This document shows positions 926 through 24,666 of a DNA stretch of 64,000 bases, piece by piece; the stretch's first letter is position 1; each line of letters begins with the position of its first letter. Source of the stretch: a virus (lineage: Duplodnaviria > Caudoviricetes); the IMG/VR virus record IMGVR_UViG_3300032246_002701, positions 1,512-65,511 of that record, one strand, 5' to 3'. The translations under genes were made by a program, and so were the position numbers. The notes under the pieces were generated by a model, which made no database searches, was not told where the DNA came from, and saw nothing but the letters and a program-made list of their open reading frames with translations.

Positions 926-3900
926 ATGGCACAGGATCGTTACACCAATAATAGTACCGGTTATGAACATCCACAGGAGAGCAATCTCTTAAACATACAT
1001 AAGGCAATGACCTACAATGCTGCTGGTGAACCAGTCTTGCGGGTCTTAACATACAGCAGTGGAGGCGGAATGGATCTAACAGCATTGAGTGTTGTAACAA
1101 CCTCATCATACCTTGGTGGCAGTTTAGCCTATGACAACACCACTGGCGTGTTTACATTTGCTCCGGCCAACGAGTTAAAAAATCTATCAGTGGGCAATGA
1201 TCCCAACGCTGATCCAGCAGATACTAACCTGCAGACTATACTGGGCAGTGTCAATGGTGCTGATATTGTACTAGAACCACTCAACGGCAGTGTGCGTGTA
1301 TCTGCTCTTAAAGTAGGTTCTGGTGGAAACATATTAAACACTACCTTAAACATTGAAGCCTATATCACAACATATGAATTGGTCAGTATAGTTGACTACA
1401 GTACTGGGACCAACGATGCCTTAGTTATTGGTACCTATGGTAATATCAACGGTGTGCTCGCTCCTTGGACTGTGTTTGAACTGGCTTCAGGCATCAGCGG
1501 TATACCTATCAGTGCTATTGAAATCAACGACCGACTAACTGGGGCGGGCATTGTTCCTAGTACAGTTAAAGATCGTGGCGCAGGCGGCCCCGGCGGTGGT
1601 GATACTTCAACTTGGAATACCTATGTCATAGTTAACTTAGATCTAACAGGACTAGGACAAGTACTGCCTTTACCGGGCGCAGTATTTGACCTTACTCGCC
1701 CCTTGAACAAGGCTAACCTGAATATTCAAAGTTCCCAGGGAACAGACATTTTCCTTGACAGTACTGGACTAGGTGATGTTATTGTCAACACCAACATCCT
1801 ACCTGTTACTAACAACATCAGTAGTTTAGGTTCTCCCACTAAACGATGGAAATCAATTTATCTTGGACCGGGTACTATCTATGTCTTTGACGAAACACTG
1901 GGCAAGGATCTTTCTATCGGTGCCCGCGATGGTCTACTCTATGTACAAAACGGTGCTGGATTATCAGTCGGCGAGTTTACATTCATAGACAATCAGATTA
2001 GGATTGCTAACTCTGCTAGAGATATCATCATTGGTTCAACTGGTGCCACAGCCAGTGTAGTGTTCAATCGTGCTATCAAAGTTAAGAACAATCTCGGAGC
2101 ACTGGCTTTTGAAGTTGACAGAAACGGTATCACTTCAATCTTTACGCCCAGCGGCGCCGACCCCAACAAAGGCACACTGAACATCATTGGCACAGTCAGT
2201 GGACTGACACAGCCTCGTGGCACATTATACGATGGCACACTGTTACACCTAACAGCACAAGACGGAAAGAGCAGTCGCATCAGTTCGGATAGTTTTGGCA
2301 CAGGTGTATATCCTTTGTATGCGGGTCGTGCGGCCCGTGGCACAGTCAGTGCTCCTACAGCAGTACAGTTGAACGATATACTATCAAGACTAACAGCCGC
2401 AGGCTATGGCACAAGTCGGTATATGACAGGTATCAGCCGTTTTGATGCTGTGGCCTCAGAAAACTTTACTGACACAGCCTCAGGCACTAAGTTTGTATTT
2501 TCTACTACTCCCGTTGGCAACACGGCTACACAAGTATCAGCCACTGTTGACAGCACTGGCATAACCTTTGCTGGAGCAGTAGATGCCGATGCTGGTATCA
2601 CTTTTAGACTTGGTTCAAGGCTAACTTATTTTCCAACACCTGTAGGGCAAACTAACTATTATCTAAAAAGCAACGGTACTACAATGTCGTGGCAACCATT
2701 GCCGGTTACAGAAAATCCGATCATCTACAAAGGTTCCTGGAACGCAGACAGCAATACTCCGGCATTGAGCACTTCAACTCCTGTGGGATTAGTATCAGGT
2801 TGGGAATTTTCAATCTCTGCCAGTGGCACACAAAACATTGGCAATGGACCACAATACTATGCCGCAGGTGGATTTGTTATATTCAACGGCACCATATGGG
2901 AATACATACCTCCTGTGACTGGGGTTTCCAGCATACAGTTTGACGGTGGATCAGTTCAGACTGGCGTGGTACAGGTTCAAAGTACAGATATTACCAGCAC
3001 ATTGAATACAGGCAGTATTGCCAACGCCAAACTGGCCAACAGTTCAATAACTGTTAACGCAGGTACTGGACTATTGGGCGGCGGCACAGTGGCATTGGGC
3101 AGTAGTATAACATTATCTAACAATGGCGTGGTTGGTGTATCCGCAGGCACAGGCATTGGTGTATCAGGCACGGGCACGGTTACAATATCCAATACTGGTG
3201 TACTGACAGTTACAGGTACTAATCATATTTCAGCCAGCGTGGTCAGCGGCGCTGTCACAGTTACCAGCGATGCTACCATTAACGCTACTAACAATACTAT
3301 AGCATTGAGAGACAGTGTTGGCGGATTAGAAGCCAAAGACTTTACAGCCACACAGGATGCCAGCATCAGAAGTGATCACGGCCCATTCAACTACGGTACA
3401 TTAAGTTACAGTGATACAGGCATTATGGCTGATTTTAGTTACTCAGTCAACAGTTATAATCAAGTTGTACTACAGAATAGAAACGCAGGAGCCGCAGCCA
3501 GTACAAACTACATAGTTAGCAACAACCTAGGCACATCTAGTACCTACTATGGTGAGTTTGGCATGAACTCAAGTGGGTTCAGCGGATCAGGTAGTTTTGC
3601 CCTACCTAATGCTGTTTATCTTGCGGCAGTGTCCAGCGATTTAGTCATCGGTACACTGGGCAACAATAGTCTTCGCATAGTAACCAACAACAGCGGCACA
3701 GATGCTGTCTCAATAAACTCAAGTGGTATTGCTACATTTGCCAATCAAATCGTGGGCAGCATCAGTGGATCAGCCAACAATGTTAGACAGAATCTAACAG
3801 CAGGCACAGGTATATCATTTAGCATGGGCACTACCTACAATGGATCTGCGGCTATAACTATCAGTGCTACCAATACCGCTACAGGCACAGTGACCAGAGT

Positions 3901-4417
3901 CAGTGGCACGGGCACAATCAGTGGACTGACATTAACGGGAAACATTACAACATCAGGTAACCTAACACTAGGCGGAACACTAGACAAGGCCAGCAGTAGC
4001 ACATTTGGTATTGCTCAAGTAGACGGCACAACCATCACAGCCAACGCAGGTGTTATCAGTGCTGTACAGACTGGCGTTGATAGTTTTACTTCTCTAGTTA
4101 CCACACAGATTACCACATTGTCTGTTGATATGACTAACGGTCCAACTATGATATTTTGGCAACCCAGTGCCAACGGCAATAGAGCAATTACTTTAAGTGA
4201 CTTTACCGCAGGACGCAGAGTTAAAATCTTTATTACTCCGCATCGTGCCCAAGACATATTCACATTTACCGGCGTCACAGCCAGTCAGTGTAGTAACGGT
4301 GTAAACACCTTTGTGCTGGGCGGAGGTGGTGTAGCACAGTCAAGCATGATGATTGAAGTATTATCAACTACTACTGCTACTAGCGGCGTATGGATATTTG
4401 GCTTTGGAAGTCAATAA
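926..4417 (+). CDS. Large tail fibre / virion structural protein
   Basis: 1163 aa, G/T/S-rich, AGTGI/AGTGL repeats, LGSPTKRWKSIY and YKGSWNA..NTPAL motifs typical of phage fibres. Confidence 0.75.
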   Translation: MAQDRYTNNSTGYEHPQESNLLNIHKAMTYNAAGEPVLRVLTYSSGGGMDLTALSVVTTSSYLGGSLAYDNTTGVFTFAPANELKNLSVGNDPNADPADTNLQTILGSVNGADIVLEPLNGSVRVSALKVGSGGNILNTTLNIEAYITTYELVSIVDYSTGTNDALVIGTYGNINGVLAPWTVFELASGISGIPISAIEINDRLTGAGIVPSTVKDRGAGGPGGGDTSTWNTYVIVNLDLTGLGQVLPLPGAVFDLTRPLNKANLNIQSSQGTDIFLDSTGLGDVIVNTNILPVTNNISSLGSPTKRWKSIYLGPGTIYVFDETLGKDLSIGARDGLLYVQNGAGLSVGEFTFIDNQIRIANSARDIIIGSTGATASVVFNRAIKVKNNLGALAFEVDRNGITSIFTPSGADPNKGTLNIIGTVSGLTQPRGTLYDGTLLHLTAQDGKSSRISSDSFGTGVYPLYAGRAARGTVSAPTAVQLNDILSRLTAAGYGTSRYMTGISRFDAVASENFTDTASGTKFVFSTTPVGNTATQVSATVDSTGITFAGAVDADAGITFRLGSRLTYFPTPVGQTNYYLKSNGTTMSWQPLPVTENPIIYKGSWNADSNTPALSTSTPVGLVSGWEFSISASGTQNIGNGPQYYAAGGFVIFNGTIWEYIPPVTGVSSIQFDGGSVQTGVVQVQSTDITSTLNTGSIANAKLANSSITVNAGTGLLGGGTVALGSSITLSNNGVVGVSAGTGIGVSGTGTVTISNTGVLTVTGTNHISASVVSGAVTVTSDATINATNNTIALRDSVGGLEAKDFTATQDASIRSDHGPFNYGTLSYSDTGIMADFSYSVNSYNQVVLQNRNAGAAASTNYIVSNNLGTSSTYYGEFGMNSSGFSGSGSFALPNAVYLAAVSSDLVIGTLGNNSLRIVTNNSGTDAVSINSSGIATFANQIVGSISGSANNVRQNLTAGTGISFSMGTTYNGSAAITISATNTATGTVTRVSGTGTISGLTLTGNITTSGNLTLGGTLDKASSSTFGIAQVDGTTITANAGVISAVQTGVDSFTSLVTTQITTLSVDMTNGPTMIFWQPSANGNRAITLSDFTAGRRVKIFITPHRAQDIFTFTGVTASQCSNGVNTFVLGGGGVAQSSMMIEVLSTTTATSGVWIFGFGSQ

Positions 4418-22102: not shown

Positions 22103-22249
22103 ATGTACCAGTTTCGAGTTTGGGTTCGTCTTAACCAGTATCAAACTGCTGATATTGTGATTAATGCCAACAATGATTGGGAAGCCAAACTACTCGCAGA
22201 AGGCATGTACGGTCAAGGTAATGTGCTTAATTATACTCGAATTAATTAA
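22103..22249 (+). CDS. Small hypothetical protein (48 aa)
   Basis: MYQFRVWVRLNQYQTADIVINANNDWEAKLLAEGMYGQGNVLNYTRIN; TAATG coupling to the next gene. Confidence 0.6.
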   Translation: MYQFRVWVRLNQYQTADIVINANNDWEAKLLAEGMYGQGNVLNYTRIN

Positions 22250-22749
22250 TGAGTGAAGAAGAGGCTGACAGGTCAAATTTAGCCAAAGGCCAAAATAGTT
22301 TCGATATTGCACCAGGGGGATCTTTGGTGCAATTTTTTAACAGAAACTCCACCCCTTATCCTGTTGAAGTAGGCGGCCCAAAGTTTGACCTGGTCCCTGT
22401 GACCAAACAGAAAGATGTCATGCTCAATGTGGCCAGATTACATGCCCGCCAAGAGTATGATCGAATTATGCAATTGGTTTCAGTGCTGCAAGAACAGGCC
22501 GCTCAAATTAAACGTCGGTTAGATGTAACAGATCAAGTTTACGCAGCGGAATATCAGTTTCAAGTTCATCACGGTAGTTGTTATTGGTTGGCCGTTGACA
22601 CCAGACGGGAAAAGACTATACTATGTCATATGGGTCCTACAGAGTGGAGTACAGGTGCACCTGATCACTACGAGTATTTGGCCCGCGTTAAGTTTTTGGG
22701 AGACCATACTTGGATTGAAGTGGACCATGATGGCAACCCAATATGGTGA
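22249..22749 (+). CDS. DUF2452-like protein
   Basis: PYPVEVGGPKF...AEYQF...MGPTEW...LGDHTW. Confidence 0.65.
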   Translation: MSEEEADRSNLAKGQNSFDIAPGGSLVQFFNRNSTPYPVEVGGPKFDLVPVTKQKDVMLNVARLHARQEYDRIMQLVSVLQEQAAQIKRRLDVTDQVYAAEYQFQVHHGSCYWLAVDTRREKTILCHMGPTEWSTGAPDHYEYLARVKFLGDHTWIEVDHDGNPIW

Positions 22750-22846
22750 ATAAATAAAAGTATTCGTTGAAGGTAGAAGTATAAGGGCAAGACGCGGCTC
22801 TCGGATGCCGCCATCTTCACCAGAAGCACATACGCCGATAGCAGGC

Positions 22847-23179
22847 GACTAAGGCAGCTATGCGAAATCTTAGTTTTATGTGTGCTTCTGATGGAGATGC
22901 CAACTCCACCATAAGGAGATTTTATGAAGAAAACATTTTTATGTGAACTTGAAAAAGATGACAAAGTTTGTAAAGCCATTGTAAGAGCCAATGATATGGA
23001 AGAAGCAGTTAGAAATTTATCACTAAATTGGCGAGTAATTAGCATAAAAGAACATCAAATCTCTTTATGATGAGCCTGACCAGGTTTCGACGTGGTGATC
23101 AGTATGAACCTGGAGAATCGGCAAAGCAGAAGCCGTTAGACTAAGGCAGCTATGCGAAATCTTAGTTTTATGTGTGCTT
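22847..23179 (+). repeat. 41-nt exact direct repeat (22847-22887 and 23139-23179)
   Basis: GACTAAGGCAGCTATGCGAAATCTTAGTTTTATGTGTGCTT occurs twice. Confidence 0.9.
22924..23070 (+). CDS. Small ORF (48 aa) inside a tmRNA-type intervening hairpin
   Basis: AAGGAG RBS; MKKTFLCELEKDDKVCKAIVRANDMEEAVRNLSLNWRVISIKEHQISL. Confidence 0.55.
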   Translation: MKKTFLCELEKDDKVCKAIVRANDMEEAVRNLSLNWRVISIKEHQISL

Positions 23180-23395
23180 TTGGTGAATTAGTAGAAGAAT
23201 TCGGTGAAGGGAACAGAAAAGCATTGCGGACGCGGGTTCGATTCCCGCCTCCTCCACCAAAAGCACATTCTTTGAGGTCTTGGTCGTTACCAGCGTAGCA
23301 AAAACGGCGACAGAGTGTGTTTTTGGAGGGGGAGACCTGGTTTCGACGTGGTGATCAGTATGAACTTGGAGAATCGGCAAAGCAGAAGCCGTTAG
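23078..23395 (+). repeat. 62-nt direct repeat of the tmRNA 5' segment (23078-23139 and 23334-23395)
   Basis: Two copies differing at 2 positions. Confidence 0.9.
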
Positions 23396-23515
23396 GGTTG
23401 GGATTACCCGGCCGTAGAAGCAAATCAAGTAAATGCAAACGATGCATATTTCGGAGAAACACGCCTAGCGGCCTGATCTCTGCGGGGTTTGATCAACCTT
23501 GTTACCAAATAGATC
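23190..23515 (+). ncRNA. ssrA: Circularly permuted (two-piece) tmRNA
   Basis: T-arm and acceptor 3' end GCGGGTTCGATTCCCGC-CTCCTCC-ACCA ends at 23259; intervening hairpin; 5' end GGGGGAG-ACCTGGTTTCGAC at 23328 gives a G3.U70 pair; tag frame 23435-23476 reads ANDAYFGETRLAA*. Outer boundaries are approximate. Confidence 0.9.
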
Positions 23516-23543
23516 AGAAAGGCTCTTTGGGGCCTTTCTTTTT
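23516..23543 (+). terminator. Intrinsic terminator after tmRNA
   Basis: AGAAAGGCTC/GGGCCTTTCT stem plus T-run. Confidence 0.75.
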
Positions 23544-23621
23544 GATTAATATTTGAATATCTAATTGTAACAAATAAGTTTACAAAATTTAATAAATAAA
23601 TGTTTAAAGGAGGGCAAGTTT

Positions 23622-23780
23622 ATGAAACAGTCTAAGTTGGTTTCTAAGTTGTATAAGGCTTGCATCGACCATGATACAGAAACAATTGCTGAACTTCGTA
23701 AAAAAGAGTTCGCCAAGATACTGAAACGTAAGGCCGAGGGAAAAGCATTTACACCTCGATGGACCGTGGTTAAAATTTAA
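23622..23780 (+). CDS. Small basic hypothetical protein (52 aa)
   Basis: AAGGAGG RBS, upstream TAAATA, downstream 14-bp hairpin 23784-23815. Confidence 0.6.
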
Positions 23781-23865
23781 TACATAGATGGGGCTATTTT
23801 GATAGCCCCATCTATTTGTAATTGTATTGTAATGCTATATCGTAAAAGTCGCGATAAATACAATT

Positions 23866-24666
23866 ATGAAAGAAACAAAAAAGTATCGAACAATATCAAT
23901 TTCAGATGTTCATCTAGGTACCAAGGATTGTAAAGCAGAGCAGCTGGTTTCCTTTCTGAAAAATAATGATTGCGAAACACTATACCTAGTCGGTGATATT
24001 ATTGATGCTTGGAAAATTCAACAGAACAGACTAAAGTGGAAACAGAGCCATACAGACGTAATTCGTTGCATACTGAAACAGGCCAAACAAGGCACCAGAG
24101 TAGTGTATGTAGCAGGCAATCACGACGAGTTTCTACGTCCAATGATTCCCTATAATGTTACTTTTGGCAGAATAGAAATCTGCAACCAGACTACTCATTA
24201 TTCAGCGGATGGAAAACAATATCTAGTTGTTCATGGCGATCTCTTTGATGGAATCACGCGATTGGCTCCTTGGATCAGTTTTCTTGGAGATCGAGCCTAC
24301 GATTTTATTTTAGGTGTAAATAGCAGATTTAATTGGATGCGACATCGTTTAGGATTTGGTTACTGGAGCCTGAGTAAATTTCTAAAACGTCGAGTTAAAA
24401 AAGCAGTAGATTTTATGTTTCAATTTGAAAAGACCATTAGTGATTACGCAAAAAAACGCAAGTTTGATGGTGTGATTTGCGGCCATATACATCATGCAGA
24501 AATTAAAGAGATCAATGGTATAATTTATATGAATGATGGAGATTGGGTAGAAAGTTGTACAGCCTTGGTCGAACATTGGGATGGACAGTGGGAAATTATA
24601 ACATGGACCGAGGAGCAAGACAATGTGGTTACTAATACTGTTAGCAGTCAACATCAACAATCATAA
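23866..24666 (+). CDS. plcP: PlcP-like phospholipase C (LpxH-like metallophosphoesterase)
   Basis: ISDVHLG, LVGDIID, AGNHDE, VHGD, YWSLS, ICGHIH, GDWVESCTALVEH. Confidence 0.8.
   Translation: MKETKKYRTISISDVHLGTKDCKAEQLVSFLKNNDCETLYLVGDIIDAWKIQQNRLKWKQSHTDVIRCILKQAKQGTRVVYVAGNHDEFLRPMIPYNVTFGRIEICNQTTHYSADGKQYLVVHGDLFDGITRLAPWISFLGDRAYDFILGVNSRFNWMRHRLGFGYWSLSKFLKRRVKKAVDFMFQFEKTISDYAKKRKFDGVICGHIHHAEIKEINGIIYMNDGDWVESCTALVEHWDGQWEIITWTEEQDNVVTNTVSSQHQQS

Follow-up and report, generated by a model that had tools for sequence, protein, structure and literature searches.

The window analysed here, a stretch of 64,000 nucleotides (nt) from a Caudoviricetes virus (positions 1,512 to 65,511 of the IMG/VR record IMGVR_UViG_3300032246_002701), holds a locus for transfer-messenger RNA (tmRNA; gene ssrA) in its permuted form, in which an acceptor piece ending in CCA, an intervening spacer and a coding piece follow one another. 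Upstream of the gene we find parts of two further ssrA alleles, one of which encloses a gene for a protein of 48 amino acids (aa), here called orf48. We think it likely that this locus of a large phage consists of one functional permuted gene together with the non-functional leftovers of two other alleles (relics 1 and 2 below), and that the spacer is a swappable module. An initial annotation of the window had described three consecutive units, each made of a CCA end, a long hairpin and a 5' acceptor strand, and all three are present, in position as well as in sequence; units 1 and 2 correspond to the two relics and unit 3 to the intact gene. The features of the locus, in window positions, are the following.

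22750–22822, + strand: relic 1, a diverged copy of an acceptor piece, recognised from repeats and alignment; no tmRNA model match.
22823–22892, + strand: hairpin-type spacer of relic 1 (GAAGCACATA...TGTGTGCTTCTGAT), fold z -5.8, with start and end motifs that match the hairpin spacers of relatives.
22893–22903, + strand: 5' acceptor strand of relic 1, GGAGATG followed by CCAA; GGAGATG (22893–22899) pairs with CATCTTC.
22900–22911, + strand: end of the relic 2 acceptor piece (CCAACTCC-ACCA), its last 8–12 nt; homology with metagenome contig L115 starts at TCCACCATAAGGAG.
22912–23072, + strand: spacer of relic 2, of the type that carries an open reading frame (ORF), recognised from an inverted repeat and the fold.
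22924–23070, + strand: orf48, gene for a 48-aa protein, recognised from homologues, the ratio of non-synonymous to synonymous substitution (dN/dS) and the predicted fold.
23073–23139, + strand: 5' fragment of the relic 2 coding piece, GAGCCTG plus a copy of 23334–23395, 67 nt, ending before the tag frame.
23139–23185, + strand: 47-nt duplicate of the 3' half of the relic 1 hairpin (repeat 96%; inverted repeat 100%).
23186–23259, + strand: acceptor piece of the intact gene, from the RF04321 and RF01850 alignments; 5' limit approximate, CCA end at 23259.
23260–23327, + strand: hairpin-type spacer of the intact gene, 68 nt (Rfam alignment; fold z -4.1).
23328–23541, + strand: coding piece of the intact gene (ARAGORN, Rfam), starting at G23328.
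23516–23545, + strand: terminator-like hairpin with a T run, which closes the tmRNA gene and corresponds to the final helix in the RF01850 alignment.

ARAGORN and Rfam agree on a single tmRNA, a permuted (two-piece) one at about 23186–23541; the ARAGORN call spans 23167–23567 and gives the tag ANDAYFGETRLAA, and the Rfam scores are 106.4 bits for RF04321 (cut-off 47) and 94.4 bits for RF01850 (cut-off 84). The acceptor piece has the T arm GCGGG-TTCGATT-CCCGC, with a T-loop of the TTCGAnT type, and closes with the acceptor 3' strand CTCCTCC and an encoded ACCA; CTCCTCC forms with GGGGGAG an acceptor stem of 7 base pairs (bp) that includes a G3.U70 pair. G3.U70 is the identity pair for alanine. 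The spacer is flanked by the arms AAAGCACATTCT and AGAGTGTGTTTT, and none of 200 shuffles of its region folded as well (z -4.1). The tag frame (23435–23476) encodes ANDAYFGETRLAA, with a resume codon and a hydrophobic C-terminal degradation signal. Judged by these features of its sequence, this is a working permuted tmRNA gene. The two programs thereby bore out the third unit of the initial annotation, but gave no match for units 1 and 2, where a permissive Rfam scan of 22600–23700 likewise returned no further tmRNA match at E <= 10.

Relic 1 (22750–22903) is evidently the front half of an allele that formerly resided at the site. Its acceptor region comprises the T arm GCGGC-TCTCGGAT-GCCGC, the acceptor 3' strand CATCTTC (22812) and ACCA, which ends at 22822. 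The T-loop TCTCGGAT has 8 nt and is not of the TTCGAnT type. CATCTTC and GGAGATG form six Watson-Crick pairs and one G-U pair; the stem has G2.U71 and A3-U70 and lacks G3.U70, and only 7–11 nt of a coding piece follow the spacer. The hairpin of the unit (88 nt) has a folding energy of -39.1 kcal/mol (z -5.8), matched by none of 200 shuffles. A repeat that had escaped the initial annotation (22744–22773 and 23181–23210, 30 nt, 83% identical) indicates that unit 1 derives from a complete acceptor piece, of which it is a diverged copy. Phage Marzo reads GGGGATG-CCAAGGTTTCGAC at the position that corresponds to the 5' strand of relic 1. Relic 1 passes into relic 2 at a point within 22899–22903, and one Logan contig of the sequencing run X1 spans this junction.

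The former residence of this allele is brought out by a comparison of the Logan contigs of four runs with window 22200–24000. A 46-kb contig of run X2, about 95–96% identical to the window in both flanks, passes from a homologue of unit 1 (22749–22894) through 36 divergent letters to 23367–24000, and the 472 nt of the window at 22895–23366 are thus extra or replaced relative to those 36 letters. This path implies that the X2 phage has a single tmRNA gene, of which the unit 1 homologue is the real acceptor piece and spacer; as reconstructed, its T arm reads TCGGG-TTCAATT-CCCGA and its acceptor stem ATGGTCC/GGGCCAT, with G3.U70. In addition, contigs of X1 have the CATCTTC and GGAGATG sequences joined with a normal T arm and with GGTTTCGACG, and we conclude that this run also contains an intact allele of that type. 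We note separately that in these co-occurring contigs the CATCTTC/GGAGATG stem, with G2.U71 and A3-U70, adjoins a normal-looking tmRNA despite the G3.U70 that would be expected.

Relic 2 (22900–23139), by the homologies described here, is the remnant of an ssrA allele that had a protein gene in its spacer. The basal stem of the spacer, TAAGGAGATTT with AAATCTCTTTA, sequesters the ribosome-binding site and the stop-codon region of the gene, and the same architecture is found in the spacers of five intact genes (L083, L090, L098, L108 and L115). With its 13-bp basal stem the unit folds with a z of -2.6, and 2 of 200 shuffles were as good. GAGCCTG after the spacer pairs with CAACTCC before it at 4 of 7 positions, so unit 2 is without an acceptor stem of its own; it also has neither a T arm nor a tag frame. 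Its coding-piece fragment belongs to a pair of segments (23040–23139 and 23296–23395; 100 nt, 80% identical) whose last 62 nt are 96.8% identical, and GAGCCTGAC at the start of that fragment resembles GGGCCTGA of L115, L086 and L099. Beyond the three units, the initial annotation had listed the 7-bp acceptor stem of unit 1 with its damaged T-loop, the 48-aa ORF of unit 2 with ribosome-binding site and stop codon in the stem and CAACTCC-ACCA running to 22911, a 62-nt copy of the tmRNA 5' start, and a piece of hairpin 1 that recurs at 23139; these details all stand, the last of them as a 47-nt repeat (22847–22893 and 23139–23185, 96% identical) with its first 41 nt identical.

The gene enclosed by relic 2 looks real. 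Its Shine-Dalgarno sequence, TAAGGAG, lies 5 nt before the ATG, and its homologues fall into four clusters of 79–92% identity, two of them (P0003 and P0004) running on into GPDMVSTG, the translated start of the tmRNA 5' end. In the metagenome contig L115 a 72%-identical homologue sits exactly between the CAGGTCC-ACCA and the GGGCCTG of a permuted tmRNA (RF04321, 55 bits, the gene being cut by the contig end), and the homology with the window extends from TCCACCATAAGGAG through orf48 to TTATGATG-GCCTGA. Between the two genes dN/dS is 0.21 and the differences fall 11 / 8 / 17 by codon position. orf48 is under purifying selection, and we predict that it is translated. Relatives were not found in viral contigs by peptide patterns, nor by tblastn in a cultured-phage collection or in 80 syntenic loci, and the protein belongs to no PHROGs or Pfam family; Pfam rows for Csm6 HEPN and Huwentoxin (E ~0.03) were at chance level and were rejected. 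AlphaFold2 predicts a beta-beta-alpha-beta fold (pLDDT 92.9), which is common to many uncharacterised small phage proteins and has no Foldseek match at E <= 0.001 in PDB or BFVD. The best PDB match, T7 Gp2 (TM 0.67, E 0.06), and the nearest named Atlas cluster, RNA_pol_inhib (score 0.81), are not significant, and PF16857 was undetected in orf48 even at E <= 10. For this small predicted beta-beta-alpha-beta protein, the T7 Gp2-type inhibitors of host RNA polymerase (PF16857) are the nearest weak match, which we take as a lead only.

We next consider what other phages carry in this spacer. The gene directly upstream of the locus, of family DUF2452, has relatives in 103 stretches of viral contigs, several of them with a tmRNA directly downstream, and the best 80 of the 103, from 79 records, formed our syntenic set. 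A permuted tmRNA scores above the Rfam cut-off in 25 of the 79 records; ARAGORN alone reports a tmRNA in 5 of the 80 loci and thus under-calls permuted genes that the Rfam model finds. These records hold 16 distinct spacers, five with a ribosome-binding site and an ORF (30–83 aa) and eleven without such an ORF, the latter comprising ten hairpins of 64–88 nt and one of merely 23 nt. Hairpin spacers mostly start with AAAGCAyAyTG and end with CTTTTGAT, and in the ORF type the ribosome-binding site follows the CCA directly (CCACCA-TAAGGAG-N5-ATG). That motif occurred in a permuted-tmRNA context in 29 of 120 matches listed for viral contigs and in 0 of 120 listed for bacteria and archaea, and the idea that it is a general bacterial feature was rejected on that comparison. 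With a probe independent of the Shine-Dalgarno sequence, 116 loci were read, of which 75 had the permuted architecture; 16 of their 72 distinct spacers had a Shine-Dalgarno sequence and an ORF of at least 18 aa. Rfam confirmed a tmRNA in 15 of the 16 ORF-type loci checked, the other being L123. The cultured phages XacN1 and Marzo have spacers of the hairpin type, and an ORF-type spacer was found in neither of them.

In 41 pooled distinct spacers, TGAT stands directly before the coding piece in 33 and an ORF was flagged in 27, one of which was judged spurious and two of which were unconfirmed as tmRNA; in 15 of the flagged ORFs the TGA of this TGAT serves as stop codon, 1 nt short of the predicted RNase P site. 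The most frequent cargo is a hydrophobic peptide of 22–26 aa. Six variants of a 24-aa peptide differ in 11 / 3 / 18 columns by codon position, with synonymous differences (pS 0.17–0.81) above non-synonymous ones (pN 0.02–0.17), and this bias is the signature of a translated gene. Spacers are 22–42% identical despite acceptor pieces that are 81–91% and coding pieces that are 85–92% identical (backbones 81–92%). As similar backbones thus carry unrelated spacers, either a hairpin or different ORFs, spacers have been replaced wholesale. These comparisons support the view that the spacer, from the CCA end to the predicted RNase P site, is a swappable module in this phage group, usually filled by a hairpin of 53–90 nt and, in roughly a fifth to a third of the genes, apparently by an ORF of 22–83 aa. 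The cargo slot proposed in the initial annotation accordingly finds its counterpart in relatives, with ORFs in 5 of 16 and in 16 of 72 spacers and the L115 homologue of orf48 inside an intact gene.

Several further observations on these loci deserve mention. A GGCAGTG or GGCAGAG loop takes the place of the TTCGAnT T-loop in L082, in the L086 group, in L099 and at the X1 joint 23236->22808, and several phage tmRNAs with such loops score above 100 bits. A family of cysteine-rich 38-aa spacer ORFs (MKYTALCPSCF..., in L362, L415, L434 and L441) runs 27 nt into the coding piece, so that the C-terminus comes from the tmRNA 5' end. Two contigs of 331 kb and 115 kb (L123 and L153) have a 342-nt segment with a conserved 101-aa ORF between a CCA end and the matching 5' strand; L123 received no Rfam tmRNA call at the gathering threshold, and the context of the 101-aa ORF is unconfirmed.

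How could the array in the window have arisen? The block of T arm, acceptor strand and CCA is present in three copies (starting at 22801, 22890 and 23238), and the locus reads as hairpin half, insert and coding-piece start, followed by hairpin half, insert and coding-piece start again. One adjacency is abnormal: at 23139 half a spacer directly follows the start of a coding piece. The array resembles a tandem duplication in which the two inner segments have come to contain different modules of acceptor end, spacer and 5' strand. The comparisons support a mosaic of at least three ssrA alleles, and co-infecting phages that recombine through conserved tRNA-like flanks would be its simplest source. 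The recombination between ssrA alleles that the initial annotation had envisaged is consistent with this mosaic and with the approximately 95%-identical X2 phage, which has a single gene. Relics of tRNA-like-domain or coding-piece sequence outside the gene occur in 2 of 53 tmRNA loci (the window and L103), the extra matches at nine other loci being to the 3'-terminal part of the queries alone. An exact 20-nt match to the start of the window's coding piece was not found in viral contigs. The end of the 23139–23185 duplicate forms 13–14 bp with 23254–23267, where the intact gene has its CCA end and the start of its spacer. Such leader pairing went beyond all 200 shuffles in one of 18 tmRNA genes examined, that of the window (14 bp), and a general leader-trailer processing stem was rejected on this count.

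At the other locus with relics (L103, in its oriented form), an orphan second coding piece with another tag and the 5' strand GGGCCAT lies at 2344–2541, about 500 nt past a complete permuted tmRNA gene and without an acceptor piece of its own. Since the pieces of a permuted tmRNA pair in trans, the one acceptor piece of L103 might serve two coding pieces. Locus L112 has a weak RF04321 match of 38 bits.

The record from which the window was taken is 65.5 kb long, with a CheckV completeness of 18%, and the window, with a GC content of about 32–47%, is a fragment of a large phage genome. Its genes are tightly packed and phage-like, and include a ribonucleotide reductase, an endolysin, a metallophosphoesterase and a glycosyltransferase (PHROGs/Pfam); a 1163-aa ORF at 926–4417 belongs to no PHROG family at E <= 0.001. 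Two features precede the tmRNA locus.

22249–22749, + strand: DUF2452 gene, 166 aa (Pfam PF10504, E 6.7e-7), directly upstream of the tmRNA locus.
22595–22622, + strand: promoter-like TTGACA-16-TATACT, with 11 of 12 consensus matches.

By its recurrence beside tmRNA genes, the DUF2452 gene marks a conserved position of the tmRNA locus. Near it, ARAGORN predicts tRNAs in some relatives, with the anticodon cta in L050, L051 and L052 and tca in L032; these predicted amber- and opal-reading tRNAs hint at stop-codon suppression or recoding in those phages. The promoter-like site is a candidate start for a transcript that covers the relics and the intact gene, and no comparable site was reported on the + strand in 22623–23747. 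Together with the terminator-like hairpin at 23516–23545, it suggests that the relics, orf48 and the tmRNA are probably part of one transcript.

We thus suggest that divergent phage alleles recombined at this site and left relics 1 and 2 upstream of the functional gene, the 47-nt duplicate of the relic 1 hairpin marking a duplication junction. The relics, orf48 and the intact gene would be transcribed together, tRNA-processing enzymes would mature the intact gene alone, and orf48 would be translated from the long transcript, thereby profiting from tmRNA expression despite the disruption of the ssrA gene that first hosted it.

Other explanations have to be weighed against this one. The ssrA alleles of co-occurring strains could have been chained during assembly through their shared 41–62-nt repeats, giving an arrangement that is present in no genome. 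Exact repeats longer than the k-mer size do make the assembly graph ambiguous at this place, the whole locus is spanned by no single Logan contig, and pieces of the locus recur within X1 in other alleles of higher depth (29 for the joint 23236->22808, 22.8 for 22899->23340). The contigs of X1, however, tile 22200–24000 in five pieces with 0 differences and with similar depths (13.8–19.4), and one of them (record 3, 22858–23168, zero differences) contains the junction of relics 1 and 2. Run X5, from a different study, also matches 22889–23137 with 3 differences, including GGAGATGCCAACTCCACCA, which is weak support as it reaches 11–15 letters left of the junction; runs X2–X20 contain small shares alone of sampled window words. 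We regard such an artefact as very unlikely. Integration scars, that is, duplicates of an attachment site left by integrase-driven insertion into the tmRNA gene, seem to us extremely unlikely. Parts of PMC11915505 describe tmRNA genes as well-known integration sites of genomic islands, and partial gene duplicates are the expected leftovers. On the other hand, scans of 12 neighbouring ORFs, part of the window's ORFs, against PHROGs or Pfam reported no integrase family; the extra DNA amounts to 472 nt and, orf48 aside, is nearly all derived from tmRNA; the fragments consist of front halves, 5' starts and spacer halves in place of the repeated 3' ends that would flank an island; and the host record is itself a phage fragment.

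The initial annotation had gone further and read the locus as built from processing cassettes. In a functional array of this kind, RNase P and 3' enzymes would recognise each combination of CCA, hairpin and 5' strand and release small RNAs together with a mini-mRNA for orf48, with unit 1 as the processing signal that frees the orf48 message. In unit 1 a T stem of 5 bp does stack on an acceptor stem of 7 bp, ACCA follows and the fold is stable (z -5.8); moreover, none of 200 shuffles reached the 14 bp over which the leader pairs across the CCA end of the intact gene. The T stem and acceptor stem of unit 1 also differ from those of the X2 relative on both strands and yet still pair, a point that also counts against our own reading. 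No tmRNA or tRNA model scores units 1 and 2, however, and ARAGORN calls one gene; unit 2 lacks a T arm and has 4 of 7 acceptor pairs, and unit 1 has a non-canonical 8-nt T-loop and no G3.U70. The arrangement is not conserved either, with relics at 2 of 53 loci, leader pairing in 1 of 18 genes and one plain gene in the X2 relative. Working cassettes are therefore unlikely for units 1 and 2; this part of the initial annotation is not supported, a release of small RNAs at 22822 and 22911 is conjecture, and relics of recombination fit the array better.

The reading that we favor, one functional gene beside the relics of two other alleles, has its own weak points. Record 3 reaches 29 letters past the 23139 junction, X1 is probably the source sample of the window and hence no independent support, and the contigs break at the 41-nt exact repeat, which leaves unproven how the pieces are ordered across this repeat. 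The frequency counts of spacers rest on the matches listed (120 per scan) and on sequences related to one another, and the X2 T arm was reconstructed from listed differences alone, with 46 further differences unlisted. No single sequence of events accounts for every junction. Relic 1 might retain some processing, for example an RNase P cut at 22893. The promoter at 22595–22622 is a consensus match alone and lies inside the upstream gene, and it is from the sequence that we infer which parts are transcribed together, where the transcript is processed, that the ORFs are translated and in which order recombination took place.

If the relics and the spacer module are as we suggest, several points follow. 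Few RNA genes are as well catalogued as those for tmRNA, and in the permuted form the spacer has been regarded as throw-away RNA. Conserved spacer proteins would be a new place for small phage proteins, both hydrophobic peptides of 22–26 aa and proteins of 38–83 aa. The translation signals of these ORFs are built into the extension of the acceptor stem, and gene callers overlook such genes or run them on into the tmRNA. Nature would here offer an example of a protein gene that lies within an RNA gene and has tRNA-processing sites as its borders. The window would also show how such cargo moves, with divergent ssrA alleles recombining via their conserved tRNA-like flanks and at times leaving relics. 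A bolder extension, which we consider rather unlikely, is that spacer mini-proteins form a hidden class of genes whose expression is wired into tmRNA maturation, and that relic 1 is still an RNase P signal freeing the orf48 message. In that case an RNase P cut at the first base of the coding piece would leave a spacer mRNA that ends 1 nt after its own UGA stop, and peptide output would depend on the tRNA-processing enzymes and on the contest between release factor and trans-translation at the 3' end of the mRNA. The phage would then couple a small membrane peptide or a host inhibitor to the state of ribosome rescue.

The intact gene is like the permuted tmRNA genes known from Alpha- and Betaproteobacteria, cyanobacteria and aquatic phages in its order of acceptor piece with CCA, intervening sequence and coding piece, and like those of RF04321 and RF01850 in its tRNA-like domain with G3.U70 and a tag ending in LAA. 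Two-piece tmRNAs are described as common in aquatic phages in excerpts of PMC9004378, and those of PMC11915505, the tmRNA database paper of 2025, treat the intervening sequence as RNA that is discarded and name a tRNA-Ala gene and a repetitive element as the spacer oddities. Here, in contrast, a sizeable minority of phage tmRNA genes has a conserved, translatable small gene in the spacer, and the window keeps two relic front halves. A full-text literature search, which did not cover supplementary tables, found no description of protein-coding tmRNA spacers, and such spacers are unmentioned in the excerpts of the Melnitz paper (PMC9004378) and of the huge-phage paper (PMC7162821). A model by Williams (2002; summary in PMC3978253) has permuted tmRNA and rRNA genes originate by tandem duplication. 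The window resembles that model in its side-by-side partial ssrA copies with the outer segments lost, and the adjacency at 23139 is as such a duplication makes; it differs in that the copies come from different alleles and the gene was already permuted, which points to allele turnover and not to the origin of permutation. The spacer ORFs can be compared with another arrangement as well, since protein genes may be co-transcribed with tRNA genes and released by tRNA processing, as in the tufB operon of E. coli. As in tufB-type operons, the mRNA would share its primary transcript with a tRNA-like RNA, and its ends would be set by RNase P and 3' maturation. Unlike them, the spacer ORF is nested between the halves of one RNA gene, inside the acceptor-stem helix, and the basal stem of the segment that would be excised contains the ribosome-binding site and the stop codon of the ORF.

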